Virus genome (UHGV): UHGV-1593167
Strand: one strand, 5' to 3'
DNA: 17,056 nt
Source: a virus
The notes below the pieces were generated by a model. That model had not been told where the DNA came from. It did no database searches and was given only the letters and a program-made list of their open reading frames with translations. Position numbers and translations under genes: made by a program. This document shows, in pieces, positions 1 to 16,861 of the stretch. Each line of letters opens with the position of its first letter. The first letter of the stretch is position 1.

Positions 1-36
1 AGCGGCAGGAGTCTATGAACACGTTTCAGTGAAACC

Positions 37-55
37 ATTTAAGAAAGTGTTCTGA
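37..55. repeat. Left copy of 19-bp direct repeat ATTTAAGAAAGTGTTCTGA; putative attachment-site core (attL/attR)
   Basis: Identical 19-mer at 37-55 and 17002-17020, bracketing an element with a tyrosine integrase just inside the right copy. Weaker similarity continues beyond the core (left 111-127 CAATAAATTAAAGGGCAC vs right 17031-17046 CAATATTTAAGGGCAC). Confidence 0.6.
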
Positions 56-173
56 TTTATTAGAAATTTGCACTTAAATCAAAAAGTTACGGACAATTCA
101 ACCACCAATCAATAAATTAAAGGGCACATTAAAGTACACAATATTTGTGCCCTTCTCTGTTTCTTTCCCGTTA

Positions 174-722
174 TCAGCTAGCTGGAAACTTTTTATACAG
201 AGTTGAGAGCCCTACTCCATACGTTTTTGATACGCTTTGTCGTGATTCACCGGTTGCCATCCGCTCCCCCATTTCCCGCCATTGCTCATCCGTGAACTTA
301 GGCCTGCGACCACCAACTCGCCCTTTTGCCCTGGCTACGGCCAGCCCTGCTAAGGTACGTTCGCTATTAAGATCAGATTCATATTGTGCTGCGGAAAGGA
401 TGTTACGAAAGTTATAGCGGCCGCTGGCTGTTTTGAGATCCACGCCATCGGTAATACTGCGGAAGTTGATACCCTTTTCCTGTAACTGCTGGAACATCAA
501 CAGCGCATGCAGAACGTTGCGGCCTATCCTGTCCAGCTTCCAGACCACCAGTTCATCCCCCGGCTGCATAGTGGCGATCAGCCGTTTTAGAACCGGCCGA
601 TTCGATTTCCTCCCGCTGGCATGCTCTTCAAAAATTTTCTCACAACCCGCTGACTTGAGCGCCGTTAGTTGCAATTCAGTGTCCTGGTGGTTTGTTGATA
701 CTCGGGCATAACCGTAAATCAT
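174..722 (-). CDS. pin: Serine recombinase, DNA invertase of the Gin/Hin/Pin/Cin family
   Basis: 182 aa from the internal ATG at 722 (MIYGYARVSTNHQDTELQ...), with catalytic-serine motif YARVST, WKLDRIGR and a C-terminal HTH (GVGLSTLYKK). SD AGGAG lies 7 nt upstream of this ATG; the longer track ORF (to 881) has no plausible start. Sits next to an invertible fibre segment. Confidence 0.9.
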   Translation of the reverse strand: MIYGYARVSTNHQDTELQLTALKSAGCEKIFEEHASGRKSNRPVLKRLIATMQPGDELVVWKLDRIGRNVLHALLMFQQLQEKGINFRSITDGVDLKTASGRYNFRNILSAAQYESDLNSERTLAGLAVARAKGRVGGRRPKFTDEQWREMGERMATGESRQSVSKTYGVGLSTLYKKFPAS

Positions 723-726
723 GGGA

Positions 727-753
727 TTTCTCCTGTTATGAAAACAGGAGAAA
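727..753 (-). promoter_or_regulatory. Perfect 11-bp inverted repeat (TTTCTCCTGTT / AACAGGAGAAA, 5-nt spacer) in the invertase leader; the 3' arm contains the invertase SD
   Basis: 727-737 is the exact reverse complement of 743-753. On the pin mRNA this gives an 11-bp stem with a 5-nt loop ending 4 nt before the AUG and containing AGGAG. Confidence 0.5.
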
Positions 754-781
754 CGGCGAAGCATCACCAGATTTTTGATGG

Positions 782-807
782 TTATAAAAAAGGTTGGTTT
801 GGGAGAA
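782..807. other. Invertase crossover site 1 (hix/gix-like 26-bp site) TTATAAAAAAGGTTGGTTTGGGAGAA, core TT at 794-795
   Basis: Resembles recalled hix/gix sites (half-site TTATCAAAAACC, 2-bp central core). Shares 15 bp (TTGGTTTGGGAGAAG) in inverted orientation with the site at 2659-2684. Lies about 60 bp upstream of the invertase gene. Confidence 0.7.
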
Positions 808-1284
808 GGCTCTGCATTACCTGTTGGTGTCCCTGTTCCGTGGCCTTCCGCCACTCCGCCAACAGGCTGGCTGAAATGCAACGGTGCGGTTTTTTCTGCT
901 GAAGAATACCCGGAACTGGCAAAGGCTTATCCAACAAATAAATTGCCTGATTTACGTGGTGAGTTTATTCGTGGTTGGGATGACGGGCGCGGTATTGACG
1001 CGGGGCGCGAAATTCTGTCTGCTCAGGGGGATGCTATTCGTAATATAACCGGCACATTTGGTAATGGACAAACCGAAGCTAATGCGGCTATTAGCTTTAA
1101 TACAGCGAGTGGTGTTTTTGTAAGTCAATCAGCACTTCGTAATACGATAGGTAACACCACAATCATTCCAAATACCCCAAACAATCCTCATTTAGTCAAT
1201 TTTGATGCTTCAAGAGTAGTGCCAACTGCCTCAAAGAACAGACCAAGAAACATTGCATTTAACTATATCGTGAGAGCAGCATAA
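795..1284 (+). CDS. Silent alternative tail-fibre C-terminal cassette (Sv'-like); promoterless, expressed only as a fusion after inversion
   Basis: Reading frame begins inside crossover site 1 with no independent start signals. Encodes typical fibre C-terminal motifs (LPVGVPVPWPS..., ...RNIAFNYIVRAA). Same codon phase across the core as the fibre gene at site 2. Confidence 0.7.
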
Positions 1285-1886
1285 TGGATAAAGCAATATT
1301 AAATAGTGGACTTGTTGCTACAAAGGCAGGGGATATTACCGTTTATAACTATGATGGTGAAACGCGGGAATATATTTCCACATCAACTGAATATCTTGCG
1401 GTTGGCGTCGGTATCCCGGCATGTTCTTGTTTAGATGCACCAGTTACACATAAAGCTGGTTATACAATTTGCCGTTCAGCAGATTTAAAATCATGGGAAT
1501 ATATGCCAGACCATCGCGGTGAAATCGTTTTTAGCACCGAAACAGGGGAATCAAAAGAAATCACAGCTCCGGGTGATTACCCTGATAATACAACCACTAT
1601 CGCCCCGTTAACGCCATACGATAAATGGGATGGTGAGAAATGGGTGACGGATACCGAGGCACAGCACGGCGCAGCAGTAGATGCAGCAGAAGCACAGCGC
1701 CAGTCGCTGATTGATACTGCAATGGCCTCCATCAGTCTGATTCAGCTGAAATTGCAGGCCGGACGTAAACTAACGCAGGCAGAAACAACCCGCCTTAACG
1801 CTGTGCTGGATTACATTGACGCGGTGACGGCAACAGATACCAGCACCGTGCCGGATGTCATCTGGCCTGAACTGCCGGAGGCGTAG
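1284..1886 (+). CDS. Tail-fibre assembly protein (Tfa/gpG-U family), partner of the silent cassette
   Basis: 200 aa; ATG overlaps the upstream stop (TAATG); C-terminal ...DVIWPELPEA typical of Tfa chaperones; position inside the invertible segment. Confidence 0.75.
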   Translation: MDKAILNSGLVATKAGDITVYNYDGETREYISTSTEYLAVGVGIPACSCLDAPVTHKAGYTICRSADLKSWEYMPDHRGEIVFSTETGESKEITAPGDYPDNTTTIAPLTPYDKWDGEKWVTDTEAQHGAAVDAAEAQRQSLIDTAMASISLIQLKLQAGRKLTQAETTRLNAVLDYIDAVTATDTSTVPDVIWPELPEA

Positions 1887-2298
1887 GCCATTCAATATCT
1901 GGCGCACCGGAAGTATCGACCAGCTCCAGTGCGTCCAGATAATCCAGCCACAAATTATATTGCGCCAGTTCCTCACCTTTCAGACGACCAATAGCCGCTT
2001 TACCAGGCCATTGTTTACTGTTCATATAATCGTTGGCCTGATTAATCAGTTGCTGCTTTTCCAGTTCGGCTGCAGCAATCTGTTCCTCATATGTTGGTGG
2101 TGGAATTTCAGACCATGCAGGAAAACCATTTTCTCCAGCGATACGGATTTTTCCTTTCGGCGGTAATCCGGAAAACTCAATATACACTTGCTCATCAACT
2201 TCAACAGCATCATCTGGCCATGAGTCAGCTTGAGTGTAATCCTCTTTCATCTCCAGCGGATAGAAAGAGTTTGTAGTCGCGGAATATATGTAATTCAT
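1858..2298 (-). CDS. Tail-fibre assembly protein (Tfa/gpG-U family), partner of the currently expressed fibre
   Basis: 146 aa starting MNYIYSATTNSFYP..., C-terminal ...DIEWPTPP; SD GGAG 6 nt upstream of ATG at 2298; 3' end overlaps the convergent tfa by 29 nt. Confidence 0.8.
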   Translation of the reverse strand: MNYIYSATTNSFYPLEMKEDYTQADSWPDDAVEVDEQVYIEFSGLPPKGKIRIAGENGFPAWSEIPPPTYEEQIAAAELEKQQLINQANDYMNSKQWPGKAAIGRLKGEELAQYNLWLDYLDALELVDTSGAPDIEWPTPPAVQAR

Positions 2299-2319
2299 TT
2301 TTCACTCCATATAGCTAAA

Positions 2320-3102
2320 TTAACAGCCTAACGCTAAAAATGAAGCGCCGAGGCCAGGAGTACTGGCTCTGGATATAAATTTAACCGGGTCGGGACTAAA
2401 ACCTGCACAGGCAATATAACCAACAGCCCCGCTATCTGGTGTGTAGTCTTGTGAGACCAAAACACGCAGACATCTGTTTGGAAATGCAATCGGGAAATGG
2501 GTTACTACATCCTGTGCAATGCCTGGTGCGCCGATTGAGCCCCACTGAAGAATAAAACCTGATGGTAATTTTTGATATCCAGTACCTGAAACAGAAAGCG
2601 TGAAGCTACCCATATCAGGTATCTGATTCGCCCCTGTCCCTACATTCCTTTTAGCCGCTTCTCCCAAACCAAGGTATGTGAGAATGTCAGCAATAGTATT
2701 TTTCCCAATAATGTCACGGCCAACAGAAGTTAAATCAGTCTGCGCTGCTGTATCATTTCCAGTGAAATATGGGAGTTTATTTGCACCTGTTGCGAGCCCA
2801 GCTAATGCCGACAGCGTGGCATCAAGCGCCTGGAAATCTTTCCCGAAAGCGGTCCCCATTTTGGATATAAACCCGTTCAGGTCTCCATCATCAAGCACAT
2901 CCAGCCCGCTTTTGTTGGCGGTGTACTGCGCCAACGCTGCCGCGATAAAGCTGGCTTGCCGAATAGCTTTGTTGACCTGTGCGCTGGATGCTTTACCTGC
3001 CGTAAACCCTGAAAGCAGAGCCGGAAGTGCTTCCCAGTCAGCTTGTGAGGTGACGTTAGCGTTCGGATCAAGCGCGAAAGGTTTAAAGTTGTTTATTGCC
3101 AT
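2320..3102 (-). CDS. Tail fibre protein: constant N-terminal part (about 143 aa) fused in the current orientation to variable C-terminal part Sv (2320-2672)
   Basis: Start chosen at ATG 3102 (MAINNFKPF...), coupled to the upstream stop as TAATG; the track's longer ORF starts at 3120 with a poor SD. Crossover site 2 lies inside the gene at the constant/variable junction (...[13 protein letters not shown]...). Confidence 0.75.
2659..2684. other. Invertase crossover site 2 (hix/gix-like) TTCTCCCAAACCAAGGTATGTGAGAA, core AA at 2671-2672
   Basis: Left half TTCTCCCAAACC matches the recalled hix/gix half-site pattern; inverted relative to site 1 with complementary core dinucleotide; located inside the fibre ORF. 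Confidence 0.7.
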
Positions 3103-3782
3103 TAGAGTATTGTCCCCCATGCTCCAACATCGAACCCGCCGATGTATTCGTTATCCATATCAAACCCAAAGAATTTAGAGCCTTCTGACGGTGTTTCTAC
3201 CGAAGGCGTTTCAACATCACCGGCCCATACGCCAGCTGATTTAACGGTGAGATAGCCCTGTTTGATAGCGGCGATCAGTTCGAGAGACACATCAGAAATA
3301 TCAGTTTCAGGGAAAACCCAGACCGAAATCGTCATGTCCTGGTTGTCGACGATCTGCATCCTCAGGCCTGAGCCTGCGGTAGCAGCGTCAAGGATGGGAG
3401 GCAGAGAGTCGTTCCGACCGTCCCAGTTGTTGATAGCGATTTTCGCTTTCAGAATGATGCGGTACGTCTCATCGCTTAGCGTCGTATAGCCAGAATCAGG
3501 ATCATATGGCCCTTGCCAGATGCCCTGGTCATACCCAAGCCCGTCAGTGTCCCAGCTGAAATAAACTCCGCTAATTGGCTGGCTGACTATGCGACTGCGT
3601 CCGATCCACAGACCGAGGATGTCGAGCTGTACACCGACAGCAGTATCGATATCGAAGGCTGTTATAAGCCCTGACATAGCGCTGGACACATCAATCAGCG
3701 GGCGGGTGCTCAGATCTATATGGTCAAAAAAGAGTGGCTTGGTAGCGTGGTAGTTAGTGATCAGTTCGGTGTATTTGCTCAT
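3102..3782 (-). CDS. Baseplate/tail protein, Mu gp48 / P2 gpI-like (DUF2313-like)
   Basis: 226 aa; sits between the J-like gene and the tail fibre; ATGA overlap with upstream gene; family recalled, not searched. Confidence 0.6.
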
Positions 3783-4978
3783 GAGGTCACCGTGATACTG
3801 ATATTCGCGGTGCTACAGGACGCTGAAGCATCATAGGCAATATCAATGTTTGATGCCGATACGCTGCCAGACGACTTACCGATCAGCAGGTCGGTAATAT
3901 CGTAATAGCGGGCATTCCCGCCGCTCACAACGCCGAGGTTTGCCGGGGAATAAATACGGCTCAGCAGAACGTCGTCGCCAATTGTTAGGCCATTTATATA
4001 ATCGGCAACAGCCTGTTTAATCTGCTCGCCGATTTGAGAGGTATAGCCGGTAAAAACTTTCAGGGTAATGGCTACGAAAATTGGCACATCGGTAGAGCGC
4101 GAAAAACTGATGACGTGAGGATTACCATAAGTATCCGGCACTGTGACAGAAGTTTTACCGTAAGTTGCGGTTCCCTGCCCTTTATTCCCCCTGATGGTCT
4201 GGGCTATCTCGGTAACATCCCCTCCATCGACGATGGCGGAAATAGAGTGTGGCGGCAGCCCGTTGCTGTCGGTTGCCCCAGTGTCGTTCTCATATAGTTT
4301 GTGACGTGTCACGCCAGCAACATTAGCGATAGCACCGTCGACACCTTCAAACGGTGTGATCGATGGTAGCGCGACGCTTTGCCCCTGCCGAATGCGCAGC
4401 TCTGCGTCGGTTTCGGCTGGTGAACCGACAGTAGCCGCAACTGGATTGGTTACCGACACCCAACCTCGGGTCGGGGTGTTGATAGTGGTAATAGTCCCGG
4501 CCAGCGCCGCAACCGAACCGCTATTCGCACATGTGGCCGTCACCAGCACAGTACCATCAACGCCGATCGCCACACTCGCTGGAAAATTCCAGATAATGCC
4601 GTTTTTATCCCGTGCGGAGCCATTCGTGATAGTCGTGCCTGCCGTACCGGTTAACAGAAGGTCAGCAGTAGAGTTTGTCGCTACTTTTCGCGTGATCCCG
4701 TTAATTTTCACATTGTTGCTAAGCGCTGCGGCCTGCGCTGTCGTCGGTGAAAAAGAGTTGTAGATCTCGATAGCGGTATTGTTAGCGTCATGCACCGCAA
4801 GAGCCACCAGCGCGACCATTTGCCCATCTTTGCTGTCTGGTTCGAGGTAGGCATCACTACCGTAAATCTGCCTGAAATAGCTGGTCAGTGTATCAAGGAT
4901 TGTCTGGTAATCAGGCGCACTAATCCCCTGGGCGGTTACCGTTGCCGATAGCCCCAGCGTGTCGAGGTTCAAAGCCAT
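3779..4978 (-). CDS. Baseplate J-like protein (Mu gp47 / P2 gpJ family)
   Basis: 399 aa; size and position after the W-like gene; family recalled from sequence character. Confidence 0.7.
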   Translation of the reverse strand: MALNLDTLGLSATVTAQGISAPDYQTILDTLTSYFRQIYGSDAYLEPDSKDGQMVALVALAVHDANNTAIEIYNSFSPTTAQAAALSNNVKINGITRKVATNSTADLLLTGTAGTTITNGSARDKNGIIWNFPASVAIGVDGTVLVTATCANSGSVAALAGTITTINTPTRGWVSVTNPVAATVGSPAETDAELRIRQGQSVALPSITPFEGVDGAIANVAGVTRHKLYENDTGATDSNGLPPHSISAIVDGGDVTEIAQTIRGNKGQGTATYGKTSVTVPDTYGNPHVISFSRSTDVPIFVAITLKVFTGYTSQIGEQIKQAVADYINGLTIGDDVLLSRIYSPANLGVVSGGNARYYDITDLLIGKSSGSVSASNIDIAYDASASCSTANISITVTS

Positions 4979-5332
4979 TTATGCCTCGCTTGTTACAGTC
5001 GTCTGGCCGTAGATTGTGTCAATGGAGGAAGTGAAGGTGACGCGACGGCTGGTGCCGTCATAATTGGTATCGAAGGAAAGAATCGACAGAACGCCCGGTG
5101 TATCCTGTATGCGTTCGCGTATGGCCAGGATGTAGACATCTGATCGCTGCTTCCCAAGCACTGACTGAACATACGGCGTGCCTTCCGTCAGATCGAGAAA
5201 CCACTGACCGCGCCACAGCTCGAAACGGGTTTTTACGGCCTGGGCGACACATTCCGGACTGTCGATAAGGAAAGTATCGTCACCCTGGCCGAAAGTGTAA
5301 TCGCCTTCAGTATCTTCGCGACGGTATCGCAT
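4979..5332 (-). CDS. Small baseplate protein, Mu gp46 / P2 gpW-like (gp25-like)
   Basis: 117 aa; TAATG coupling with the upstream spike gene; position between spike and J-like genes. Confidence 0.6.
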   Translation of the reverse strand: MRYRREDTEGDYTFGQGDDTFLIDSPECVAQAVKTRFELWRGQWFLDLTEGTPYVQSVLGKQRSDVYILAIRERIQDTPGVLSILSFDTNYDGTSRRVTFTSSIDTIYGQTTVTSEA

Positions 5333-6072
5333 TATTGCGGCCCTCCGGTAGTTCCCCCGCCAGTCTGTACTCCGCCATGTTTATGCGTGGCGACACTGAT
5401 ACCAGAAGCTGTTACGTCATTCGTTACCGTCACCGGCCCAAGCATCGTCGCAGTACCGCCGCTTTCTCCCATTCCCTGAGACAGGTTACCGTTAATCGTT
5501 ACGTTGCCGTTCAGCGTGATAGTCGGGGATGTGATTGTCGTTCCACCCTCAGCCGTAGCCGTAAGCTTGCCCGGCGTTTTAACGGTGATGTTATGCCCTG
5601 CTGCGACCTCTACGAACGCCGAGCCATCATCGGTTCGCAGCTGCGCGGCGCTGGTACTGATACCGCTGATTTTCTGCGCTTGCGACTGCGGGCCAACGAT
5701 GGCGAACGCATCAGATAAGTCATGCTGGCGCGGGTCGACGGTCTCCTGAACGCCGCCGCTCTGCCACCAGAAATCGATGCAACGGTCGGCAAAGATCAGC
5801 AGGCACTCGTCGCCTTCTTTTACCGGAAAGGTCAGCGTGCAACCGCCGCCGCGCGGGAAGATAACCGGCACATCCACCAGCGGTTTTAATTCGGTGGAGC
5901 CATCGCCAACAATACCGCGAAGCGCTACCTCTACTGTGCAGGTAACAGTGTCAGGATCGAACGACTGAATGATGCCGGGCATCGCTACGCGCATCTGGGT
6001 AGACACCGAATCGACAATGGCCTGCGCGGTCTGCTGCTCACCGCCGATCTGTGATTGAGTTGGAATTGGCAT
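5332..6072 (-). CDS. Baseplate assembly protein V / central spike
   Basis: 246 aa; N-terminal V-type domain and Gly/Thr-rich C-terminus (...HKHGGVQTGGGTTGGPQ); SD GGGGG 7 nt upstream of ATG 6072. Confidence 0.7.
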   Translation of the reverse strand: MPIPTQSQIGGEQQTAQAIVDSVSTQMRVAMPGIIQSFDPDTVTCTVEVALRGIVGDGSTELKPLVDVPVIFPRGGGCTLTFPVKEGDECLLIFADRCIDFWWQSGGVQETVDPRQHDLSDAFAIVGPQSQAQKISGISTSAAQLRTDDGSAFVEVAAGHNITVKTPGKLTATAEGGTTITSPTITLNGNVTINGNLSQGMGESGGTATMLGPVTVTNDVTASGISVATHKHGGVQTGGGTTGGPQ

Positions 6073-6080
6073 AAAACCCC

Positions 6081-6107
6081 CATAAAAAAACCAGCCGAAG
6101 CTGGTTT
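6081..6107 (-). terminator. Rho-independent terminator-like hairpin on the minus strand, directly upstream of the spike gene
   Basis: Stem AAACCAGC / GCTGGTTT with loop CGAA (6088-6107); on the minus strand it is followed by a run of 7 T (6081-6087 are A on the plus strand). Confidence 0.5.
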
Positions 6108-6294
6108 GGTATCAATTATCTCTTAGTAACTAAGCCACATCAGTGTGAAGTAAGGCTTTTCCGCTGCAATGGCACACATTCACAAGGTGTATTAGGATAT
6201 GTTTGCAACAAGTAAGCATTGAAAATCAATTTCAGCCATGAAGCCGCCATAGAGTGGACCTGCACCATCGCATTATTGACTACAGGAGTAACAA

Positions 6295-6585
6295 ATGGGA
6301 TTTAGATTTCGTAAAAGAATCCGGATTGCGCCCGGACTCGCGATCAACATTAGTAAAAGCGGAGTAAGCACTTCAATTGGTGGTAAAGGTTCCACCATTA
6401 ACATCGGAAAAAAAGGCGTAAAGATGACAAATGGCCTTCCCGGCACGGGGCTGTCGCATACCACTAACCTTTACTCTCCCGGGAAATCGACAGAAAAAAA
6501 ACAACTTACTCATAAGCAAAAAATAATTAGAAACATCCTGTTCGTAATTATTGTGTTTATTATAATTAAAGCTCAATATTTTTGA
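6295..6585 (+). CDS. Small membrane-anchored protein with DUF4236-like N-terminal motif and C-terminal transmembrane helix
   Basis: 96 aa, MGFRFRKRIRIAPGLAINISKSGVSTSIGGKGSTINIGKKG... (family recalled); hydrophobic ILFVIIVFIII near the C-terminus; SD AGGAG 6 nt upstream; opposite strand to the surrounding tail genes. Confidence 0.6.
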   Translation: MGFRFRKRIRIAPGLAINISKSGVSTSIGGKGSTINIGKKGVKMTNGLPGTGLSHTTNLYSPGKSTEKKQLTHKQKIIRNILFVIIVFIIIKAQYF

Positions 6586-6590
6586 CGCAT

Positions 6591-6616
6591 GCCCGCCTAT
6601 CTGGCGGGCTATTTTA
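6591..6616. terminator. Bidirectional terminator-like hairpin between convergent genes
   Basis: Stem GCCCGCC / GGCGGGC with loop TATCT (6591-6609), followed by a T-rich tract on the plus strand and an A/T-rich tract on the minus strand. Confidence 0.55.
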
Positions 6617-6944
6617 CTTTTCGGCAGTCGTATGTTGCATACTGACGCGGCGAATCCATGCTGGCTTGCAGCCACTGAGCATTCAGGATTGCTTTACCAT
6701 TACGGCCAATAAACTCCATTCCTACCCATCGCCCTGGTTGATTGGTCGCTATGCGCCATTCAATTTTGACGTTGTTATAATCACCGTCATTTTTAAGAAA
6801 TGTCACTTTTTGCGATTCAGGTTTAGCTCCGTTTACGCGAGCGAAACCATCATCAGCCCAATGGATTTTGAAATCACCACACTGAGAATCAGCAATAGCT
6901 TGGAAAGAAAATAATGCTGCAATGATAAAAATTACGAGTTTCAC
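6609..6944 (-). CDS. Small secreted protein of unknown function
   Basis: 111 aa from GTG 6944 (SD GAGG 8 nt upstream); signal peptide MKLVIFIIAALFSFQA; two Cys; AT-rich gene. The track's longer start at 6986 lacks an SD and would overlap the hub gene. Confidence 0.55.
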   Translation of the reverse strand: MKLVIFIIAALFSFQAIADSQCGDFKIHWADDGFARVNGAKPESQKVTFLKNDGDYNNVKIEWRIATNQPGRWVGMEFIGRNGKAILNAQWLQASMDSPRQYATYDCRKVK

Positions 6945-6954
6945 GTCCCGTACC

Positions 6955-8019
6955 TCAGTAGTTTGTTTTTTGCATAGCACCAGCATTAACTAAATCACGA
7001 CTGCCACGCGCAAAACACATCAAATCCATGTACCACGCCTGACCTCTGGTGTCGCCAGTATAGTCGATAGCTTTGACGATATAAACGCCATCTGTCGCAA
7101 TGCTGGCAGCCTGTGACGTTGTGCCGGTCAGTGCGCGGTTGCCGTTCTCTTCCGTTTCAGTGATACGCCCGGGCGACTGTGCGATTTCGCTATTGCCGAG
7201 CGCGGCGCGGTACACCGAAGCCTGATCGAGCTGGATAAGACCATTAATGCGGATGTTTGGGTTTATCAGGCACCGCACGTTTACGCCGCCGCCCATTGTC
7301 TGTTGCGGCATACCGATCAGGCCAGTATTGGCATTTAACACAATGGCTTCGTGAATATATTTATCCTCCGGCACCATCTGGACCTGTCCATCCACCAGCT
7401 GCCATGTCGCTTTGCACTGCGCAGCAATATTATCCATCACGTTACGGGTGGATGAGTAAATCGCGCGGCCACGAGGAAACACGGTATCAGGAAAATCGCC
7501 GGTAATGCCCTGTGTCACGCCGAACGCGTTGAAATCCTGCATCGTCGCCCGGTGCAGATCCGCAACGGTATAGCCAGCGGCAAGCGTGGTGATGGTAGTC
7601 GCGTAGAGGAACGCTTCGTGGTTACTGATGGCCTGAATCAGCACCCAGGAATCGGTGATGTTGTCCTTCCCGGTGACGGTGAAGCGAATATCACCGTCAA
7701 ATATCAGGCCGTAGTTCTGACCGTTCACCTGCCCTACCTGGTCTGGTGAAATCTCCCGGGCGACACCAACCTGGCTCGCATCAACATCCGGCGCAATACC
7801 GTCATACCCGGCAATGATGCGAATTTTTGCAAACTCCTGCCCCAGTATCTTGTTCGTGGTATCGGTCGAAAGGTTGTAAATTTTCACGTTTGCCACGCGC
7901 GGCCAGCGTGTATCTGCCCACTCGATCTGGAACGTGACCTTAAAATCAGACAGGGAAATACCCTGCCCGTTCTGGTCCAACAGCTGCAACTCAAAATGGC
8001 GCATCCAGTTAAGAGACAT
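6955..8019 (-). CDS. Putative baseplate hub / tail protein, assigned by position
   Basis: 354 aa; SD AGGAG 5-6 nt upstream of ATG 8019; lies between the tape-measure-like gene and the spike. Family not recognised with certainty. Confidence 0.45.
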   Translation of the reverse strand: MSLNWMRHFELQLLDQNGQGISLSDFKVTFQIEWADTRWPRVANVKIYNLSTDTTNKILGQEFAKIRIIAGYDGIAPDVDASQVGVAREISPDQVGQVNGQNYGLIFDGDIRFTVTGKDNITDSWVLIQAISNHEAFLYATTITTLAAGYTVADLHRATMQDFNAFGVTQGITGDFPDTVFPRGRAIYSSTRNVMDNIAAQCKATWQLVDGQVQMVPEDKYIHEAIVLNANTGLIGMPQQTMGGGVNVRCLINPNIRINGLIQLDQASVYRAALGNSEIAQSPGRITETEENGNRALTGTTSQAASIATDGVYIVKAIDYTGDTRGQAWYMDLMCFARGSRDLVNAGAMQKTNY

Positions 8020-8021
8020 TT

Positions 8022-8327
8022 CTACTCCTGCACGAAAATGAGGTGGCTGTATGTGCCGAGGTTGGTTTTGGTGGGCTCGTCTGGTGCGCCCTTATCGGTC
8101 GCCACCACCAGCGCACCATCAATGCCAAGCTGTGGATATTGTCGTAATAGGTTCACGCCGGTCAGGAGAGGTACGCCAGAAAGAAGCGCAGCACCGCCGC
8201 TATCCATCACGTCCATGATCCAGCCAGCCGCATCGCGCCAGATGATCCTGAGCGTATAGGTGGTATTGCCCAGCAAAACGCGGAACTGCTGATTGTCAGG
8301 AGAAAGCGGTATTTCGTTAAACTGCAT
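8022..8327 (-). CDS. Small phage tail protein, unknown function
   Basis: 101 aa from ATG 8327 (SD GGGGGA 5 nt upstream); coupled to neighbouring genes in the tail operon. Confidence 0.5.
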   Translation of the reverse strand: MQFNEIPLSPDNQQFRVLLGNTTYTLRIIWRDAAGWIMDVMDSGGAALLSGVPLLTGVNLLRQYPQLGIDGALVVATDKGAPDEPTKTNLGTYSHLIFVQE

Positions 8328-8328
8328 A

Positions 8329-8931
8329 TCATCCCCCGAATGCTGATGTAACGCTTCCGCCAAGCTGGCTCAGCAAGGATTCGTTTGGCGGTGTAGTGGA
8401 TTTCGTCCCGGAATTTTGCACCGCCGATGTGCTGACGCCATCCTGCATATCTGATTTATCAGCAACACTAACGCTCTGCGTTTGCGACATGATCACTTCA
8501 CGCAGGGTAAGCGTGCAGTTCAGCACGTTTTCGCTGGTTTTGTCCGTTGTCACCTCGATGGCTCGCACCAGCATATTGCTGTACACCCGCTTTCCGGTCA
8601 CCACATCGAACGGCACCCGAGAGGACTGGAGATCCAGCAGTTGCTGATAGGTCTCTTTCGGGCTTAGTCCGGCGCTGAGGCCGATTGAAGATGTATCAAT
8701 GAAGTCCAGCAACGAACCGCCACCAGCGAAGCCGCATTCCATTGTGACTTCGCTGGGGCGCTTATACGCATGATCGGCGATGAAGCCCGAAGCGCTATTC
8801 GTTGTTGGCTTCTCCACCGGGTGCTCAGTAATTTCGAGCGCATCAGAATGCTTTTCGGAGACGACCACGCTGGGGATCAGCAGGCCAATTCGCCGGGATT
8901 GCTGGCGAAAAATCGCTGATAAAATATCCAT
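8329..8931 (-). CDS. Phage tail protein, unknown function
   Basis: 200 aa; ATG 8931 overlaps the stop of the upstream gene (TAATG). Confidence 0.5.
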   Translation of the reverse strand: MDILSAIFRQQSRRIGLLIPSVVVSEKHSDALEITEHPVEKPTTNSASGFIADHAYKRPSEVTMECGFAGGGSLLDFIDTSSIGLSAGLSPKETYQQLLDLQSSRVPFDVVTGKRVYSNMLVRAIEVTTDKTSENVLNCTLTLREVIMSQTQSVSVADKSDMQDGVSTSAVQNSGTKSTTPPNESLLSQLGGSVTSAFGG

Positions 8932-10532
8932 TATCTCGGTCCTGCGGGGAGTTGCTGGGTTAACTGTGAATTCACGCCCTTTTGACGATCAACAGTCAAA
9001 CGGGCAGCCTCGCGCGGATCGGAAACGCCGTGGATGTTAATATTCGTTTCCTGCTGAATCACCGGGGCGCTGGTGGGCATGTTGCTCATTACTTTCGGAA
9101 TGTAGTTACGCGTTTCCTGCGGCATTAACCCCATGCCATAGCGCTTAACATTCCCGATCCCCCAGTTATATGATGCCAGTGCTTTGCTAAGGTCTCCACC
9201 GTTCTGCCGCAACAGCTGGCTGAGGTACTTAGCTGCGGCCTGAGCTGACTTTTGCGGGTCGAATACATCGTTTCCGCGAAGGCCCATGTCGCGCGCCGTA
9301 CCATCCATAAACTGAAACAGACCTTTCGCGCCTGCGCCGGACATGGCGAACTGGTTACCACCTGACTCGGTTATCGCCACACTTTTCAATAGACCAGCTG
9401 GAAGTTGATAAAGCGACTCAAGTTTATTGAACATTGGCCCCATCCAGTCGAGCAATACTTTGCCCTGGGCTGTGGCCCGTGGACGTTTGACTGATTGCGC
9501 AAACTGGGAGGGGTCACCCGATATATTTGGAGAGATTTCAGCAGCTCCAGCCGGGGAGAAAAATAAATTACCGATTTTGGCAATCCCGTCTGAGATTTTT
9601 TCAAGATAACCATTAGCAGCCTGCTGACGGTTTTTTATTTCATCTCTTTCATGCGGGGCAATTTCATTACTACGAACATGCTGTTCCGCCCCGGGAATGT
9701 CAGGCTGAACATTATCGCCATAAACGACGCCATTGCTTTGCGCCTGACGAATAATCTTACCTGGGCCACCATGCAGCCAATCCATCCATGCGGGCCATTC
9801 TCTTACCTCGCTAACATCTTTTCGCCCAAGGTCGGTTTTGATGCCAACCGTAGCAAGAGCATCACCAATGTTCCTTTTGGTATAGTCCAAAGATGATTTA
9901 GCACTGGCTTTTATGTTTTCACGATCTGAAACCAGGTAACCAGCATACGCTCCCCATAATTTAAGCCATGGAGGTATCGGAAGACCGGATATTTTTGCGA
10001 ATGCTCCCAATACTTTTGTTACCCATACCCCAGCGATGAAAGTAGCCAAAATTTCCAGCGAGTTCTGCCATCCACCAACAGAATCTTTCAGCCCCAGAAG
10101 CTTATCGCGCAGCCAGAGAATTGCCTTTTTCGCCTTTTCTATTGCAGGCTCCCACTTGGACCAGTCAATCAGGCTTTTACCGCCTTCTTTCCACGTCTGA
10201 TAATCGTCATAGAGTAATCCGATCGCCAGAATCAGCGTGGTGATAATTCCAATCGGGGATTTCAGGAACGCAGAATTAAGCAGACGCCATGCGACAAGTA
10301 GAGCACCGAATATTTTCAGCAGATTTTTACTGCCATCGTCAAGACGCTTCCACCAGTCGATGACAGAGCCAGCGCCCTGTATCAGCCGCCACGCCATTCT
10401 CGTGAATGCGTTCGCAAGCCAGATCACGCCTTTAATAACTCTGGTCAGCGTCTCTTCAATCTTCGGGAAATTGTCGAGGATGCGCCGCCGCAGGCTGTCC
10501 AGCGAACCAGCCAGGCCACCAGCGAAGTTCAC
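8931..10532 (-). CDS. Tape-measure-like tail protein fragment with hydrophobic segments and a C-terminal lytic transglycosylase (SLT) domain; probably 5'-truncated
   Basis: SLT motifs (ITESGGNQ..., GLFQF, SYNWG); hydrophobic helices typical of tape-measure C-terminal regions. The ORF opens with GTG directly after an in-frame stop and abuts an oppositely oriented operon. Confidence 0.55.
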   Translation of the reverse strand: MNFAGGLAGSLDSLRRRILDNFPKIEETLTRVIKGVIWLANAFTRMAWRLIQGAGSVIDWWKRLDDGSKNLLKIFGALLVAWRLLNSAFLKSPIGIITTLILAIGLLYDDYQTWKEGGKSLIDWSKWEPAIEKAKKAILWLRDKLLGLKDSVGGWQNSLEILATFIAGVWVTKVLGAFAKISGLPIPPWLKLWGAYAGYLVSDRENIKASAKSSLDYTKRNIGDALATVGIKTDLGRKDVSEVREWPAWMDWLHGGPGKIIRQAQSNGVVYGDNVQPDIPGAEQHVRSNEIAPHERDEIKNRQQAANGYLEKISDGIAKIGNLFFSPAGAAEISPNISGDPSQFAQSVKRPRATAQGKVLLDWMGPMFNKLESLYQLPAGLLKSVAITESGGNQFAMSGAGAKGLFQFMDGTARDMGLRGNDVFDPQKSAQAAAKYLSQLLRQNGGDLSKALASYNWGIGNVKRYGMGLMPQETRNYIPKVMSNMPTSAPVIQQETNINIHGVSDPREAARLTVDRQKGVNSQLTQQLPAGPR

Positions 10533-10553
10533 TCAGAAAAACTGGAGAACATC

Positions 10554-10760
10554 ATGGTTCATCAGCACTACGGTACACAGACAGTAAACCGCGGCGCAGT
10601 TCAGCCGGGGATGCTCGTCAAACACAAAGACTCAACCTGGACGGCATCAGCTAACGCTCGCGGACGTTTGTATCTGCATCGCGGCGTAGAAATGACTTAC
10701 ACCAAGGATTTGCTGGTTGAAGTTTATCTGAACGGTCTGGGGCATGGACTCAGCCACTAG
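10554..10760 (+). CDS. Small protein (68 aa), first gene of the early operon; possible Kil-type protein
   Basis: SD GGAG 6 nt upstream of ATG; occupies the position that kilR holds upstream of ydaE-racC-recE in Rac. Identity is inference from synteny only. Confidence 0.4.
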   Translation: MVHQHYGTQTVNRGAVQPGMLVKHKDSTWTASANARGRLYLHRGVEMTYTKDLLVEVYLNGLGHGLSH

Positions 10761-10771
10761 CGGAGGATGTC

Positions 10772-10933
10772 ATGTTAGACAAGAAATGCGGATATTGCGG
10801 CAAGCCGGTTAAAACGGAGGAAGTAATCAAGAGCACCCTTCTCTATCGCAACGGCTCACAGCTGGCGCGCAAAGAAAAAGAGTATTGCTCCAAACGTTGC
10901 GCTTCGCACGACCAGATGGCTCACGAAGGCTAA
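10772..10933 (+). CDS. Small zinc-ribbon protein (53 aa; CxxC...CxxxC), not in the ORF track
   Basis: MLDKKCGYCGKPVKTEEVIKSTLLYRNGSQLARKEKEYCSKRCASHDQMAHEG; SD GGAGG 4 nt upstream of the ATG; four Cys at positions 6, 9, 39, 43. Confidence 0.5.
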   Translation: MLDKKCGYCGKPVKTEEVIKSTLLYRNGSQLARKEKEYCSKRCASHDQMAHEG

Positions 10934-11071
10934 CGTAAAACCCGCGCAAGGCGGGATTCACGTCCGGTGCCACCGACCAAAGTTACACCGGAATTTATAC
11001 CAAACCAAAAAACATCCAATGGGCGCTATCTCTGGCCCGGGGATTCTAACACTCAAAAAAGAGGATCTCAC

Positions 11072-13981
11072 ATGGAATTTTTCCATCTGATAAAAGCCAG
11101 TCAGAAGTCTGGCAAGAAAGATGCAGTGATTTGGTTCACTGCGAAAAGTGTAGCGCGCGCCAATCTCCAACTCGATGTGGCACTGGAAGAAGCCGGAATT
11201 GAAGAAACTGGCCGCGGTAAAGATTATGCCAAACCAATCCGCACCGATTTCCCGGTATATGACGACCTGCCGGAAGAAGGCGCAGTGGATTACACCTGGT
11301 GCGAACGCTACGAACTGCAGAACGATGACCGCACCTGGCTGCCAAAAGTCACAGCTGAAAACTCTGACGAGAAAACGGCTCAGACCGTTGATAGTCACAT
11401 AACTACTGAGTCAACGCTGCCAGAAACCGCTGGCATCACGCTGGACGAACACGACGACGACTCAACCCTCTACCCGGTAGTGCAGATGCCGTTTCGTAAG
11501 CAACTGCTTTCCCAGTTCACCGCCGACGAACTGCGCCACCACGTAACCCGCGAAGAGTACGAAGCTATCGGCGCGCTGGAGATGGACACTGATAACAGTT
11601 ACGTCCAGAACTTGCTGTTAGCTGCTGAGAACTGCCCGGAAGTGAAGGGTTACGACACCAAAGACCTGTGGCGCTACACCGATGCCATTCGCAAAGTGTT
11701 CAGCCAGGACAAGCGTCACGAACTCGCGCTGGTACTCCGTTTCACCAGAATGTGGGCGGCTACTGATTACATTGACCGTGGCATCCTGGCGCGTGAATGG
11801 GCTGCCGGTAATCACATCAGTAGTGTTCAGCGTACTGATTCCGGAACCAATGCCAACGGCGGTTACGTCACTGACCGTGGACCTGATACATACCATACCC
11901 TTGACACTCTCGATTTAGAGATTGCATGTGCCCTTCTGCCTATGGACTTCAACCACTTCGAGATCCCGGGCAGCATTCTTCGTCGCGCTAAAGAAATCGT
12001 GACCAAAAAAGAAGAACCGTGGAAATCATGGAGCAGCATTCTGCGCAATCAACCCGGCGTTCTTGGCGTTAACCGCACAGCTATTTTTAACCTGATACGT
12101 ATCGCGCCGGAAAATATTCATCTAACTCCTGTCGCTCACCTGGAGTTTGTTAACCGGACCATGACTGCTGCGTTTAATGCTGCTGTTGAGTTATTGCCAT
12201 TGCATGAAGCTGAGCCCGCAACACAGGAAATTCCCCAACCTGAAAGTAAGGAGTCTCCACGCAAACCCTTCTGCACTCACGAAGAGAACCTGCAACGCGT
12301 ACGTGAAGAAGAAGCACGCCGCCGCGCAGAGGAAGCGACAGCACAACCACATAAAGCCGAACAAGAACTGGTTAAAAATGTCGGCAACGGAATATTCGAT
12401 GTTACGGCTTTACTGCAGAACTCAGCAACTCATGGCACGAAACAGGCTACGGAAACCACCAGCAATGTGCAGGTTCAAGAAACTGTCAGTGATGAAAAAA
12501 ATGTTGGTAATGAAATGCAGTCAGGCGAAAGCAGTCTGGAAACTGGTGAAGAGTCACATCCCGGCCAGCAGGCCGATGTAAACCAAAATACGGAATCTGT
12601 CGCTCAAAATAGCGATTCTGTAAACCAGACTGAACCAGTTTTGGCACACGTCGAGCCAGAGGCGCAATCTGACGAACAAGCTGTTTTTTACCCCGATTAC
12701 TTCGAGCCTGGGCGCTATGAAGGTCTGCCGAACGAGGTTTACCACGCTGCCAACGGCATCAGTTCCACCCAGGTAAAAGATGCGCGCGTTTCGCTGATGT
12801 ACTTCAATGCGCGCCACGTTGAGAAAACCATCGTCAAAGAGCGCTCCTCAGTGCTGGACATGGGAAACCTGGTACATGCGCTGGCGTTGCAGCCAGAACA
12901 GCTCGATGAAGAATTTAGCGTTGAACCCGTAATTCCGGAAGGTGCATTTACCACCACGGCAACGATCCGCGCGTTTATTGATGAGTACAACGCCAGCCTG
13001 CCAGCGCAACTGAGCGCAGACGATATCAAAGCTTTGCTGGATGAATACAACGCCACCCTGCCAGCGCTGGTGCCGCTGGGCGCTAGCCTGGATGAAACGG
13101 CGCAGAACTATATGGCGCTGCCAGCTGAATTCCAACGTATCGATGCAGATCAGAAGAAGACAGCAACAGCAATGAAGGCGTGCATCAAAGAGTACAACGC
13201 CACCCTGCCAGCGCAGATTAAAACCAGCGGCAGCCGCGACGCACTACTCGAACAACTTGCGATTATCAATCCTGACCTGGTCGCGCAGGAAGCTCAGAAG
13301 CTGCAACCGCTGAAAGTCTCTGGCACGAAGGCCGATCTGATTCAGGCCGTGAAGGCAGTCAAACCAGATGCAGTGTTCGCCGACGAGCTGCTCGATGCTT
13401 GGCGCAACAACCCGGAAGGGAAAGTGCTGGTTACCCACCAGCAACTTGCCACCGCGCAGGCAATTCAGTCAGCACTGCTCTCGCACCCGACCGCAGGCAT
13501 GCTGCTAACCCACCCGAGCCGCGCCGTTGAGGTGAGCTACTTTGGCTTTGACGAGGAGACGGGACTGGAAGTTCGTGTGCGCCCTGACCTTGAGATCGAC
13601 CTAGACGGCGTGCGTATCGGTGCTGACCTGAAAACCATCAGCATGTGGAATGTTAAGCAGGAAAGCCTGCGCGCCAGGCTACACCGGGAAATTATTGAAC
13701 GTGATTATCACCTGAGCGCGGCTATGTACTGCGAAACCGCAGCGCTGGATCAGTTCTTCTGGATTTTCGTCAACAAAGACGAGAACTACCACTGGATCGC
13801 CATCATCGAGGCATCCGCTGAACTACTGGAGCTGGGTATGCTCGAGTACCGCAAAGCGATGCGCAATATCGCAACCGGATTCGACACAGGTGAATGGCCA
13901 GCGCCAATCACTGCTGACTACACCGACGAACTGAACGACTTCGACCTGCGCCGCCTTGAAGCGCTGCGTACTCATGCATAA
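11072..13981 (+). CDS. recE: Exodeoxyribonuclease VIII (RecE) homologue: RecE-type N-terminal region, acidic disordered linker, C-terminal PD-(D/E)XK nuclease domain
   Basis: 969 aa from ATG 11072 (SD GAGG 8 nt upstream; the track's start at 10967 has none). N-terminal and C-terminal blocks match recalled Rac RecE (e.g. NEVYHAANGISSTQVKD; RPD...GADLKT). Confidence 0.75.
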   Translation: MEFFHLIKASQKSGKKDAVIWFTAKSVARANLQLDVALEEAGIEETGRGKDYAKPIRTDFPVYDDLPEEGAVDYTWCERYELQNDDRTWLPKVTAENSDEKTAQTVDSHITTESTLPETAGITLDEHDDDSTLYPVVQMPFRKQLLSQFTADELRHHVTREEYEAIGALEMDTDNSYVQNLLLAAENCPEVKGYDTKDLWRYTDAIRKVFSQDKRHELALVLRFTRMWAATDYIDRGILAREWAAGNHISSVQRTDSGTNANGGYVTDRGPDTYHTLDTLDLEIACALLPMDFNHFEIPGSILRRAKEIVTKKEEPWKSWSSILRNQPGVLGVNRTAIFNLIRIAPENIHLTPVAHLEFVNRTMTAAFNAAVELLPLHEAEPATQEIPQPESKESPRKPFCTHEENLQRVREEEARRRAEEATAQPHKAEQELVKNVGNGIFDVTALLQNSATHGTKQATETTSNVQVQETVSDEKNVGNEMQSGESSLETGEESHPGQQADVNQNTESVAQNSDSVNQTEPVLAHVEPEAQSDEQAVFYPDYFEPGRYEGLPNEVYHAANGISSTQVKDARVSLMYFNARHVEKTIVKERSSVLDMGNLVHALALQPEQLDEEFSVEPVIPEGAFTTTATIRAFIDEYNASLPAQLSADDIKALLDEYNATLPALVPLGASLDETAQNYMALPAEFQRIDADQKKTATAMKACIKEYNATLPAQIKTSGSRDALLEQLAIINPDLVAQEAQKLQPLKVSGTKADLIQAVKAVKPDAVFADELLDAWRNNPEGKVLVTHQQLATAQAIQSALLSHPTAGMLLTHPSRAVEVSYFGFDEETGLEVRVRPDLEIDLDGVRIGADLKTISMWNVKQESLRARLHREIIERDYHLSAAMYCETAALDQFFWIFVNKDENYHWIAIIEASAELLELGMLEYRKAMRNIATGFDTGEWPAPITADYTDELNDFDLRRLEALRTHA

Positions 13982-13986
13982 GGGGA

Positions 13987-15105: not shown

Positions 15106-15143
15106 CGAGACCGGGAGGGGTAACCCTCCCTCAAGGAGATTAT

Positions 15144-15386
15144 ATGCGACTGATCAATCGAGGAAGTAAGCAATCACCTTTAGCTCGCCAAGCATGCGAC
15201 ATCGCGCTGGCAGCTCACTTGCAAACATATGGCGACTATGGGCGAAGCAAGATGAAAGAGACTTATACGGTGAAGGTTGAAGGCGTGAAAGTCTGGGTGG
15301 AGGTGGTGAACCGAAAGGCGAGCTACGTGGCCACAGCGATGACCGGCATGCGCCGTCTCCGCTCCCTGCCCGGGCAGGTTGGTTGA
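15144..15386 (+). CDS. Hypothetical protein (80 aa) between the annealing-protein gene and the Xis/AlpA-like gene
   Basis: SD AGGAG 6 nt upstream of ATG; co-directional with the early operon; no family recognised. Confidence 0.4.
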   Translation: MRLINRGSKQSPLARQACDIALAAHLQTYGDYGRSKMKETYTVKVEGVKVWVEVVNRKASYVATAMTGMRRLRSLPGQVG

Positions 15387-15427
15387 AAAAGATTTTGAAT
15401 GGCCCGAACGGGCAACTGGAGAGAGCT

Positions 15428-16815: not shown

Positions 16816-16820
16816 TGAAT

Positions 16821-16861
16821 GGGTACACATTTTTGTTTTTGGGTACACAAAAGTGTACACA
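16821..16861. repeat. Three direct repeats of GTACACA (two as GGGTACACA) in the integrase leader; candidate arm-type binding sites or operators
   Basis: GGGTACACA at 16821-16829 and 16841-16849, GTGTACACA at 16853-16861; between the integrase start and attR. Confidence 0.4.

Follow-up and report, generated by a model that had tools for sequence, protein, structure and literature searches.

That the invertases Pin, Gin and Cin invert tail-fibre segments has been known since the 1980s, and a switch of this sort is conceptually nothing new. One such switch, the P segment with its invertase PinE, lies in the cryptic prophage e14 of Escherichia coli K-12 (Plasterk & van de Putte 1985; PMC4272514; PMC12529663). 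Its crossover sequence, TTCTCCCAAACCAA at both sites, is shared with the locus described here, and qPCR and genome sequencing have been used to measure its inversion (PMC12529663). According to a 2025 report, the flip of the e14 P segment yields a chimeric fibre protein that blocks adsorption of phage T2. The G segment of Mu (with Gin) and the C segment of P1 (with Cin) follow the same plan of a constant fibre part joined to alternative C-termini with paired chaperones, a plan that also recurs at the locus described here.

We analyzed a stretch of 17,056 nucleotides (the window, UHGV-1593167), which represents a 17-kb defective prophage remnant at the phi80 attachment site (yciI/kch). A first-pass annotation had proposed that an intact tail-fibre inversion switch, which could still work, persists in an otherwise defective element, and the defective nature of the element holds. 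We put the probability that the locus is an invertible tail-fibre cassette of the e14 P-segment type at roughly 85%, and its sequence suggests that the switch could indeed still work. The features are collected in Table 1.

Table 1. Features of the predicted inversion switch, in window coordinates.
Feature	Position	Strand	Remarks
DNA invertase, phi80-PinL type, 182 aa, full length	174..722	-	outside the invertible segment
Invertase leader hairpin	727..753	-	pairs the Shine-Dalgarno sequence AGGAGA (plus-strand 729-734)
Invertase-proximal crossover site	782..807	.	core TT 794-795
Silent alternative fibre C-terminus (Sv'), tail-collar type	796..1284	+	Pfam Collar, E 1.4e-15
tfa', 200-aa tail-fibre assembly chaperone paired with Sv'	1284..1886	+	Pfam Caudo_TAP, E 1.7e-32
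tfa, 146-aa chaperone paired with the expressed Sv	1858..2298	-	Pfam Caudo_TAP, E 4.8e-37; ORF list
Currently expressed variable fibre C-terminus (Sv), gp53-like	2320..2670	-	Pfam Gp53-like_C
Distal crossover site, within the fibre gene	2659..2684	.	core AA 2671-2672
Fibre constant N-terminal part (Sc)	2673..3102	-	outside the segment

Crossover sites and fibre cassettes

The two inverted 26-bp hix/gix/pix-like sites are present as the first-pass annotation had described them, with their perfect 15-bp block and TT/AA cores, and its account proved right in all the details that could be checked. In a repeat search, the two arms of the repeat (794-808 and 2658-2672) are 15 nt long and 100% complementary. 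They form the sole perfect inverted repeat of this length between positions 600 and 3200, and by our own arithmetic approximately 0.003 perfect 15-bp inverted matches are expected by chance in 2.6 kb. Of the 13-mer GGTTTGGGAGAAG, the window contains exactly two copies, where 0.31 would be expected with up to two mismatches allowed.

Each site consists of 12-bp half-sites flanking a 2-bp core, and the two cores match. The distal site reads TTCTCCCAAACC-AA-GGTATGTGAGAA, and the proximal site, read as its reverse complement, is TTCTCCCAAACC-AA-CCTTTTTTATAA. The literature sequences of the hix, gix and cix sites were used for comparison. The outer half of the proximal site (782-793, TTATAAAAAAGG) is degenerate, with 6 of 9 consensus positions by our count; hixR likewise has CC beside its core. 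Each of the other three half-sites retains 8-9 of the 9 positions. Among these, the inner half of the proximal site (796-807) agrees perfectly with pix of e14, and the outer half of the distal site reads TTCTCACATACC on the minus strand. A search across the window for a third crossover site or additional cassettes found none, and the remaining half-site-like matches are isolated and near the level of shuffled sequence. Two half-site-like 14-mers in recE (10995 and 11224) were rejected as parts of the switch, being single halves in direct orientation without partners.

The two reading frames pass through the core in the same codon phase, as had been claimed from the shared GLGE. The minus-strand fibre gene reads ...CTT GGT TTG GGA GAA GCG... 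and the plus-strand silent cassette ...GTT GGT TTG GGA GAA GGC... (GLGEGSALPVGVPVPWPS), and in both frames the core occupies codon positions 2-3. The fibre gene follows genes for a DUF2612 wedge and baseplate J (3102-4978) and probably starts with the ATG at 3102; this codon shares bases with the stop codon upstream (TAATG), and the protein is then 260 aa long. This exact 260-aa protein is present in public collections on 9 contigs, and the 266-aa version is absent from them. The gp53-like domain covers fibre residues 184-266 (E 1e-14). The silent Sv' lacks both a constant part and an obvious ribosome-binding site; its stop codon overlaps the start of tfa' (TAATG), and tfa' and tfa are convergent with an overlap of 29 bp.

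When the segment of about 1.9 kb was inverted in silico, Sv' joined the constant part in frame and a single open fibre ORF resulted, 312 aa long if it starts at the first ATG and 306 aa long if it starts at the likelier one (3102). The C-terminus changed from the gp53-like to the tail-collar domain, and the 200-aa tfa gene came to lie behind the fibre gene, both in line with what the first-pass annotation had predicted. Each alternative C-terminus has its own tfa and can be joined in frame to one N-terminus, which is the organization of a tail-fibre inversion cassette.

In the mechanism that we propose, dimers of the invertase would bind both 26-bp sites and cut the TT/AA cores with a 2-bp stagger; one subunit pair would then turn by 180 degrees before religation, leaving positions 796-2670 inverted. 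The sequenced state would express the constant part with the gp53-like tip, followed by the 146-aa chaperone gene, and the flipped state would express the constant part with the tail-collar tip, followed by the 200-aa chaperone gene. The sites, frames, domain content, intact enzyme and flipped relatives are observed, and the occurrence of inversion in this strain, its rate and its control are what we infer here.

Both arms of the repeat lie within coding sequence, and one may ask if the repeat is only a conserved ...GLGE... coding motif, with the arrangement produced by homologous recombination or by chance. We consider this highly improbable because the nucleotide identity extends to synonymous positions, because the repeat continues, symmetric in the manner of hix, into the outer or non-coding halves, and because its position beside the invertase is conserved. 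The breakpoints of homology in other genomes also coincide with the sites. Finally, experiments show that e14 uses the same sequence for crossover: of the 16 bases in the published, experimentally defined e14 repeat TTGGTTTGGGAGAAGG, the repeat in the window shares 15 (PMC12529663).

Flipped states and cassette exchange in relatives

The gene order predicted for the flipped state exists in relatives. ET896 has the flipped arrangement at the same yciI locus, and in ECONIH5, with 96.4% identity in the flank, the alignment to the inverted window runs through the site without a break. At three loci (L009-L011) a 92.8%-identical cassette lies in the opposite orientation, with the gene order exactly as predicted. 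E. coli strain 'E14' has a 99.5%-identical cassette in the opposite state but in a different (e14-type) prophage backbone, and its homology to the window stops at 788 and 2695. The best match to the predicted flipped fibre is a fused E. coli protein with 96% identity. Both junction types are common beside this type of invertase in E. coli genomes; among the matches listed in the junction searches, no isogenic pair of strains with opposite orientations was established.

Fibre homology to many other E. coli fibres stops at 2649-2658 or at 2695, and ET896 and ET846 carry different cassettes. Cassettes have been exchanged between unrelated prophage backbones, with the crossover sites as boundaries. 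The practical gain is one of annotation: where a fibre fragment with a 'missing N-terminus' adjoins a recombinase, as in many E. coli genomes, it is not a pseudogene but the silent half of a switch.

The sharing of the e14-type repeat also bears on which enzyme would flip the segment. Other Pin-family invertases (PinE, PinQ or similar) might act on it in trans, with the adjacent gene being a passenger. The repeat is the e14 target of both PinE and PinQ, and PinQ flips the e14 repeat efficiently although it is only 38% identical to PinE (PMC12529663); the near-identical cassette of strain 'E14' likewise resides in an e14-type prophage. We nevertheless regard flipping in trans as quite improbable, given the tight and conserved linkage of PinL-type genes to the proximal site. 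This site lies 54-97 bp upstream of the gene in most related loci, which points to use in cis. PinL-type invertases occur in at least 9 other genera, where most of the loci have the same proximal-site motif (AAACC-AA-CCTTT) 5' of the invertase gene, and several of these loci have a distal partner site 1.6-3.5 kb away.

The invertase and its relation to Fis

The invertase ORF is full length, as the first-pass annotation had stated. Its product contains Resolvase (Pfam, E 3.6e-39) and HTH_7 (E 1.5e-9) domains and is collinear over residues 1-181 with Gin (3UJ3, E 1.4e-56), its nearest solved structure; the match to gamma-delta resolvase has an E value of 4e-25. R7, S9, D64, R65 and R68 are conserved and align with those of Gin, Cin and PinE, and the active-site serine corresponds to Gin S9 and Hin S10. 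With a catalytic domain bearing the active serine, a C-terminal helix-turn-helix and a length within about 180-190 aa, the protein is a small serine recombinase. The earlier label of 'Gin/Hin/Pin-type' is appropriate for the mode of action but only loosely right for family membership. The invertase belongs to the phi80-PinL clade, a little-studied branch of flipping enzymes, and the label is loose because this clade appears to lack the features that define dependence on Fis and the enhancer. PinE, of a different clade, is 55% identical to the invertase in a gap-free alignment.

The leader of the invertase gene forms a hairpin with a 12-bp stem in the minimum free energy fold of the minus strand at 700-800 (-28.8 kcal/mol, z = -5.1). 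An identical hairpin sequence occurs in five related loci, and the phi80 annotation calls the equivalent hairpin repeat IR3. Judging from the sequestered Shine-Dalgarno sequence, the hairpin probably limits translation of the invertase. A promoter scan returned matches at chance level and no convincing invertase promoter, and a search of the whole window against Rfam at gathering thresholds gave no match.

The Fis-contact patch of Hin (Q151, R154 and L155) and the basic helix-B residues K47, R/K48 and R/K51 were described as 'uniquely conserved among DNA invertases' (PMC3798978). These residues are kept in Gin, Cin and PinE (Q/R/L and K, K/R, K/R), whereas the invertase in the window has E150, E153 and R154 together with K46, R47 and A50 (Gin numbering), and these positions vary freely inside the PinL clade. 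In Hin, a helix-E gate (F105, H107 and M109) keeps the dimer inactive until Fis acts, and F106 is essential (PMC4513852). Hin F105N promotes inversion without Fis in vivo, and H107Y is a classical Fis-independent mutant. The PinL clade has an invariant GRYNFRNIL, in which Hin positions 105, 107 and 109 are occupied by N, R and I, and F106 is retained.

The recombinational enhancer is a 65-bp element with a Fis site at either end (PMC3798978), and in the P1 record its annotated extent is nt 19-90 of cin. In the window gene, G(-7) and C(+7) are both retained in the 15-mer at the proximal Fis-site position, GTATCAACAAACCAC. The counterpart of the distal Fis site has C and A in place of the G and C of gin, cin and pinE, and G(-7) is gone from every gene of the PinL clade, although we note that Fis sites are degenerate. 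Across 16 PinL-clade genes, a small sample of related sequences compared in search of a hidden enhancer, synonymous variation is low only at codons 8-14 and is normal at the distal Fis-site position.

The clade lacks the Fis-contact patch and the third basic residue of helix B, has apparently lost the distal Fis site, and has invariant helix-E residues (N, R and I) of the kind that makes Hin Fis-independent. For these reasons we tentatively suggest, with somewhat less than even confidence, that PinL-clade enzymes are a natural group of invertases, inverting tail-fibre cassettes independently of the canonical Fis/enhancer invertasome. If so, candidates for control would be the conserved asymmetric proximal site and a very low, hairpin-limited expression. 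A natural Fis-independent small invertase would, if confirmed, be of interest for mechanism and for genome engineering.

Hin and Gin alone are not a sufficient guide to the activity of an enzyme without the canonical Fis-contact residues and apparently without the distal Fis site. The same absences would fit a frozen fossil, in which the sites and genes are intact while the PinL-type invertase is inactive or essentially unexpressed and the segment no longer flips itself. The sequestered Shine-Dalgarno sequence, the lack of a clear promoter match and the degenerate outer half-site are in keeping with this. So is the result of looking up the exact flipped fibre (312 or 306 aa) in about 15 billion public sequences, where it was not found while the exact unflipped protein was. 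In ECONIH5 and strain 'E14', moreover, the neighbouring invertase genes are frameshifted or truncated, so such switches do decay. Still, a fossil appears unlikely to us: the full-length invertase keeps every catalytic residue, invertases are normally expressed at a low level, and close backbones show flipped arrangements. In addition, the clade is conserved across genera, with helix E invariant and the proximal-site motif maintained, which argues for selection on function.

The prophage remnant cannot make particles, and therefore any present-day role of a working cassette would be indirect. Possible roles are the donation of fibre cassettes to incoming phages, the supply of invertase in trans and, as reported for e14, a block of phage adsorption by chimeric fibre proteins. 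The block of T2 adsorption by e14 makes it reasonable to ask if switches of dead prophages are retained as a host defence.

Comparison with described inversion systems

The switch in the window is a homologue of the P segment. Both have the same layout (constant fibre part, Sv, tfa, tfa', Sv' and then the invertase outside the segment), both reside in a defective prophage, and the segments are of similar extent (about 1.88 kb here and 1797 bp in e14). The tfa' region has about 89% nucleotide identity to the tfaE region of e14. The two elements differ in their chromosomal site (the phi80 att site at yciI/kch versus icd), in the fibre constant part and baseplate type (a DUF2612 wedge versus YmfQ/DUF2313) and in the outer half of the proximal site (CCTTTT versus CGTTTA). 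Locus, backbone and invertase identity rule out that the window contains e14 or the P segment proper.

In Mu too, the invertase is encoded beyond the segment, and about 55-60 bp separate its start from a crossover site upstream, but the core is AA here and GA in Mu. The Mu and P1 segments, at 3-4.2 kb, are much longer.

Phage phi80 has the same att site and integrase type as the window element. Its pinL (also in mEp237, HK225 and mEpX1) is an orphan 'DNA invertase' adjoining attP, and the nucleotide identity is 94-99% along about 34-808 of the window, so that the invertase gene, the leader hairpin and the proximal site are essentially the same in both. In phi80, however, inversion is impossible, because only a single site and remnants of a cassette (annotated as a tail-collar pseudogene fragment) are left, whereas the window has a full two-site segment and the fibre gene. 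The Citrobacter phage Omnitron (CP115737) has the invertase, both sites, both cassettes and the baseplate genes collinear with window positions 180-9059, in the same orientation and at 88-93% identity (88-92% for the switch module). Its unannotated record is deposited as a complete circular phage genome of 41.9 kb, in contrast to the remnant in the window, and its early and integration regions are unrelated to those of the window.

Set beside these systems, the switch is of an ordinary kind, as in e14, Mu and P1. Its sole unusual point is an invertase of the PinL branch, which, from its residues, may not need the usual host helper protein.

Crossover sites and reading frames

The components of the switch occupy the left 3.1 kb of the window (see table). 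A repeat search returned a single perfect inverted repeat of 15 nt (794-808 versus 2658-2672); by our own arithmetic, chance alone would yield about 0.003 perfect 15-bp inverted matches in 2.6 kb. The 13-mer core block occurs twice in the window, both times at the crossover sites, and a search across the window for a third crossover site found none. Read in one sense, the two 26-bp sites are TTCTCCCAAACC-AA-CCTTTTTTATAA and TTCTCCCAAACC-AA-GGTATGTGAGAA, and thus their core dinucleotides (TT at 794-795, AA at 2671-2672) are complementary, which is what a serine recombinase needs in order to invert a segment. In each of the two reading frames, the core occupies codon positions 2-3. In silico inversion of 796-2670 gave one open fibre ORF ending ...TYLGLGE-GSALPVGVPVPWPS...IVRAA, with the 200-aa tail-fibre assembly (tfa) gene directly downstream. 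The first-pass annotation had proposed the two inverted sites with their 15-bp block and TT/AA cores, a shared codon phase, an exchange of fibre C-terminus and tfa gene upon inversion, and a full-length invertase ORF. The repeat search, site alignment, reading frames and in silico inversion reproduced all of these, and the invertase ORF is complete with both of its domains.

Features of the switch and of the adjoining prophage genes (window positions)
Feature	Position	Strand	Remarks
Invertase ORF, 182 aa	174-722	minus	Pfam Resolvase + HTH_7
Spacer, 59 bp	between invertase ORF 174-722 and site 782-807
Crossover site, 26 bp	782-807
Fibre C-terminus, 5'-truncated, tail-collar domain	796-1284	plus	ORF 775-1284
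Tail-fibre assembly gene, 200 aa	1284-1886	plus
Tail-fibre assembly gene, 146 aa, convergent	1858-2298	minus
Complete fibre gene	2320-3102	minus	last 83 residues = gp53-like C-terminal domain
Crossover site, 26 bp	2659-2684		within fibre gene 2320-3102
phi80/mEp237-like integrase, DUF4060, RecT, RecE (right to left)	10967-16872

Two other kinds of repeat were seen. The convergent tfa genes overlap by 29 bp (1858-1886), and their conserved C-terminal coding sequences contain an imperfect 18-nt inverted repeat (1805-1822/1931-1948, 83%), which is a by-product of the homologous chaperone C-termini and not a site. At the 5' end of recE, two 14-mers resembling hix half-sites (TTATACCAAACCAA at 10995-11008 and TTATGCCAAACCAA at 11224-11237) lie 229 bp apart in direct orientation; they have no partner half-sites, are conserved in one relative (L002, 11687 and 11916), and probably reflect a repeat within the coding sequence or mere chance.

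Flipped and possibly exchanged cassettes in relatives

Several E. coli relatives carry the predicted opposite arrangement. ET896 has the same yciI locus as the window and an invertase region 99.9% identical to it, and in its related cassette pair the expressed position is occupied by the collar tip and the 200-aa tfa. In ECONIH5, the fibre and baseplate flank is 96.4% identical to the window, and the alignment with the in silico inverted window is continuous across the distal site. Among database proteins, the closest to the predicted flipped fibre is an E. coli protein (P0028) with 96% identity over all 306 residues. Its three contigs have the predicted order (collar fibre, tfa200, tfa146, gp53 fragment, invertase), with a cassette 92.8% identical to the window's in the opposite orientation. 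These draft contigs (L009-L011) stop inside the invertase gene, between 126 and 378 nt from its start; because all three do so, we suggest that the gene is present in several copies, a repeat at which short-read assemblies break.

The E. coli strain named 'E14' (NZ_CP121149.1, 1243283-1245189) carries a cassette 99.5% identical to the window's in the opposite state, within an unrelated e14-type (YmfQ/gp46/gp47) prophage backbone. Homology to the window begins at 788 and stops at 2695, that is, at the two crossover sites, which suggests exchange of cassettes between prophages bounded by those sites. In junction searches, invertase-collar and invertase-gp53 joints were both common in E. coli, and homology of many other fibres to the window breaks at 2649-2658 or 2695. 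Two results count against flipping. An exact look-up found the unflipped fibre protein in 9 public contigs and the flipped one in none, and the adjoining invertase is frameshifted or truncated in ECONIH5 and 'E14' (truncated in the latter). Judged from these comparisons, the segment is a genuine invertible cassette, and the switch is likely active at present in the window's strain.

The invertase clade and its control

The first-pass annotation called the invertase Gin/Hin/Pin-type. This holds in that Gin is its nearest solved structure (E 1.4e-56, collinear over 181 residues; gamma-delta resolvase, 4e-25) and the catalytic residues are kept, but the enzyme is 55% identical to PinE and belongs to a separate, non-canonical PinL clade. 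The 'pinL' invertases of phi80, mEp237, HK225 and mEpX1 are the same gene at the DNA level (94-99% identity). A scan of species-representative genomes found 14 relatives (62-88% identical, two short fragments besides) in Trabulsiella, Kluyvera, Pseudocitrobacter, Citrobacter, Erwinia, Morganella, Shimwellia, Apirhabdus and one MAG. In the Pseudocitrobacter vendiensis enzyme, the C-terminal DNA-binding domain has a recognition helix like that of Pin (IIYDVGISTLYRKFPA) together with the Q/R/L residues that make the Fis contact in canonical enzymes; the protein appears to have swapped this domain with a canonical Pin. The proximal site next to it is degenerate (AATTGAACG).

We aligned the PinL clade with Gin, Cin and PinE. 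Catalytic residues are kept throughout, and helix E is invariant within the clade and differs from the canonical form (GRYNFRNILSAAQYESDL versus GRFFFHVMGALAEMEREL). Where Hin has its gate residues F105, H107 and M109, the clade has N, R and I, with the essential F106 retained; in Hin itself, F105N allows inversion in vivo without Fis, and of the Fis-independent mutations H107Y is the strongest (PMC4513852). The Fis-contact patch of Hin, Q151/R154/L155, is reported to be a uniquely conserved feature of DNA invertases (PMC3798978); the window has E/E/R there, and the patch is freely variable across the clade. The third basic residue of helix B (Hin K51) is Ala in the window and variable in the clade. 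The window's counterpart of the annotated Cin enhancer (nt 19-90 of cin) retains a plausible proximal Fis 15-mer. At the distal Fis position, the G(-7) and C(+7) of gin, cin and pinE are replaced by C and A, and G(-7) is missing in every clade member. Synonymous variation, which is weak evidence, is low over codons 8-14 only and normal at the distal position. Helix E, the contact patch, helix B, the enhancer DNA and the synonymous variation together suggest that activation of the clade does not go through the canonical Fis/enhancer invertasome. That it is naturally Fis-independent is possible, although we lean slightly against it.

The outer half-site had been considered weak. It does depart from the palindrome, with CC for GG, but this looks more like a trait of the family than like decay, because the proximal site is AAACC-AA-CCTTT in most related loci, where it lies 54-97 bp upstream of the invertase start codon. 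In the leader, a 12-bp hairpin (727-753; z -5.1) has the Shine-Dalgarno sequence paired in its stem. Ahead of it lies a weak terminator-like hairpin (754-769), whose U-rich tail doubles as the 5' arm of the 12-bp hairpin. The two are conserved within the window's own subgroup (87-88% identity), and the phi80 equivalent of the leader hairpin is annotated as IR3. Both hairpins would hold invertase levels low and may act as an attenuator.

A defective prophage and its known counterparts

Relatives of the window lie between yciI and kch in E. coli. Its tail genes, from right to left, encode an SLT-domain protein, a Dit-like protein, plug, hub, spike, sheath initiator, baseplate J, a DUF2612 wedge and the fibre. 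These are distal tail genes only, of a myovirus-type module unrelated to the phi80/mEp237-like part. Because the 17-kb window lacks genes for head, terminase, tube/sheath, lysis, replication and immunity, the element was rightly described as defective. Similarity to fuller prophages of the same tail type ends at 10529, and 10529-10967 is a probable deletion or recombination scar that rendered the prophage defective. This interval joins two unrelated modules, with mEp237-like recE beginning at 10967; position 10529, where homology to Omnitron-type tail genes ends, falls within the SLT-domain (tape-measure-like) ORF (8931-10532) or at its start.

Citrobacter phage Omnitron has the same invertase, switch and baseplate block (88-93% identity) in a record deposited as a complete circular phage genome of 41.9 kb, whereas the window is a 17-kb defective element. 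In phi80, only one crossover site and cassette remnants persist. Like mEp237, HK225 and mEpX1, it has the same invertase, leader and single site (JX871397.1 versus window 34-856), followed in phi80 by only ~50 nt of gp53-type cassette and then a tail-collar pseudogene fragment. From its sequence, we read the phi80 pinL region as an orphan remnant of such a switch, in a siphovirus.

The closest counterpart is the P segment of the K-12 cryptic prophage e14. The window is not e14 itself, a candidate we ruled out; its ends match the phi80 attachment region. Both K-12 crossover sites share their inner 14 bp (TTCTCCCAAACCAA) exactly with both window sites, and window 794-808 matches the first 15 of the 16 bases of the published e14 repeat, TTGGTTTGGGAGAAGG (PMC12529663). 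The gene layout is common to the window, e14, Mu G and P1 C, and the tfaE-type chaperone region of e14 is ~89% identical to the window. Because of these likenesses we assign the feature to the P-segment type of tail-fibre inversion cassette; the e14-type sites, gene layout and flipped relatives all support the original interpretation as an inversion switch. Inversion in e14, for which there are sequencing and qPCR measurements, requires PinE or PinQ (PMC12529663), and both orientations are present in clonal K-12 cultures (PMC4272514). According to a 2025 report, P-segment inversion in e14 yields a chimeric fibre protein that blocks phage, which offers one concrete way in which such a switch could be worth retaining in a dead prophage. 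The switch type is already very well known, and the window adds one more example: effectively a P-segment homologue that differs in fibre, prophage backbone, chromosomal site and invertase clade.
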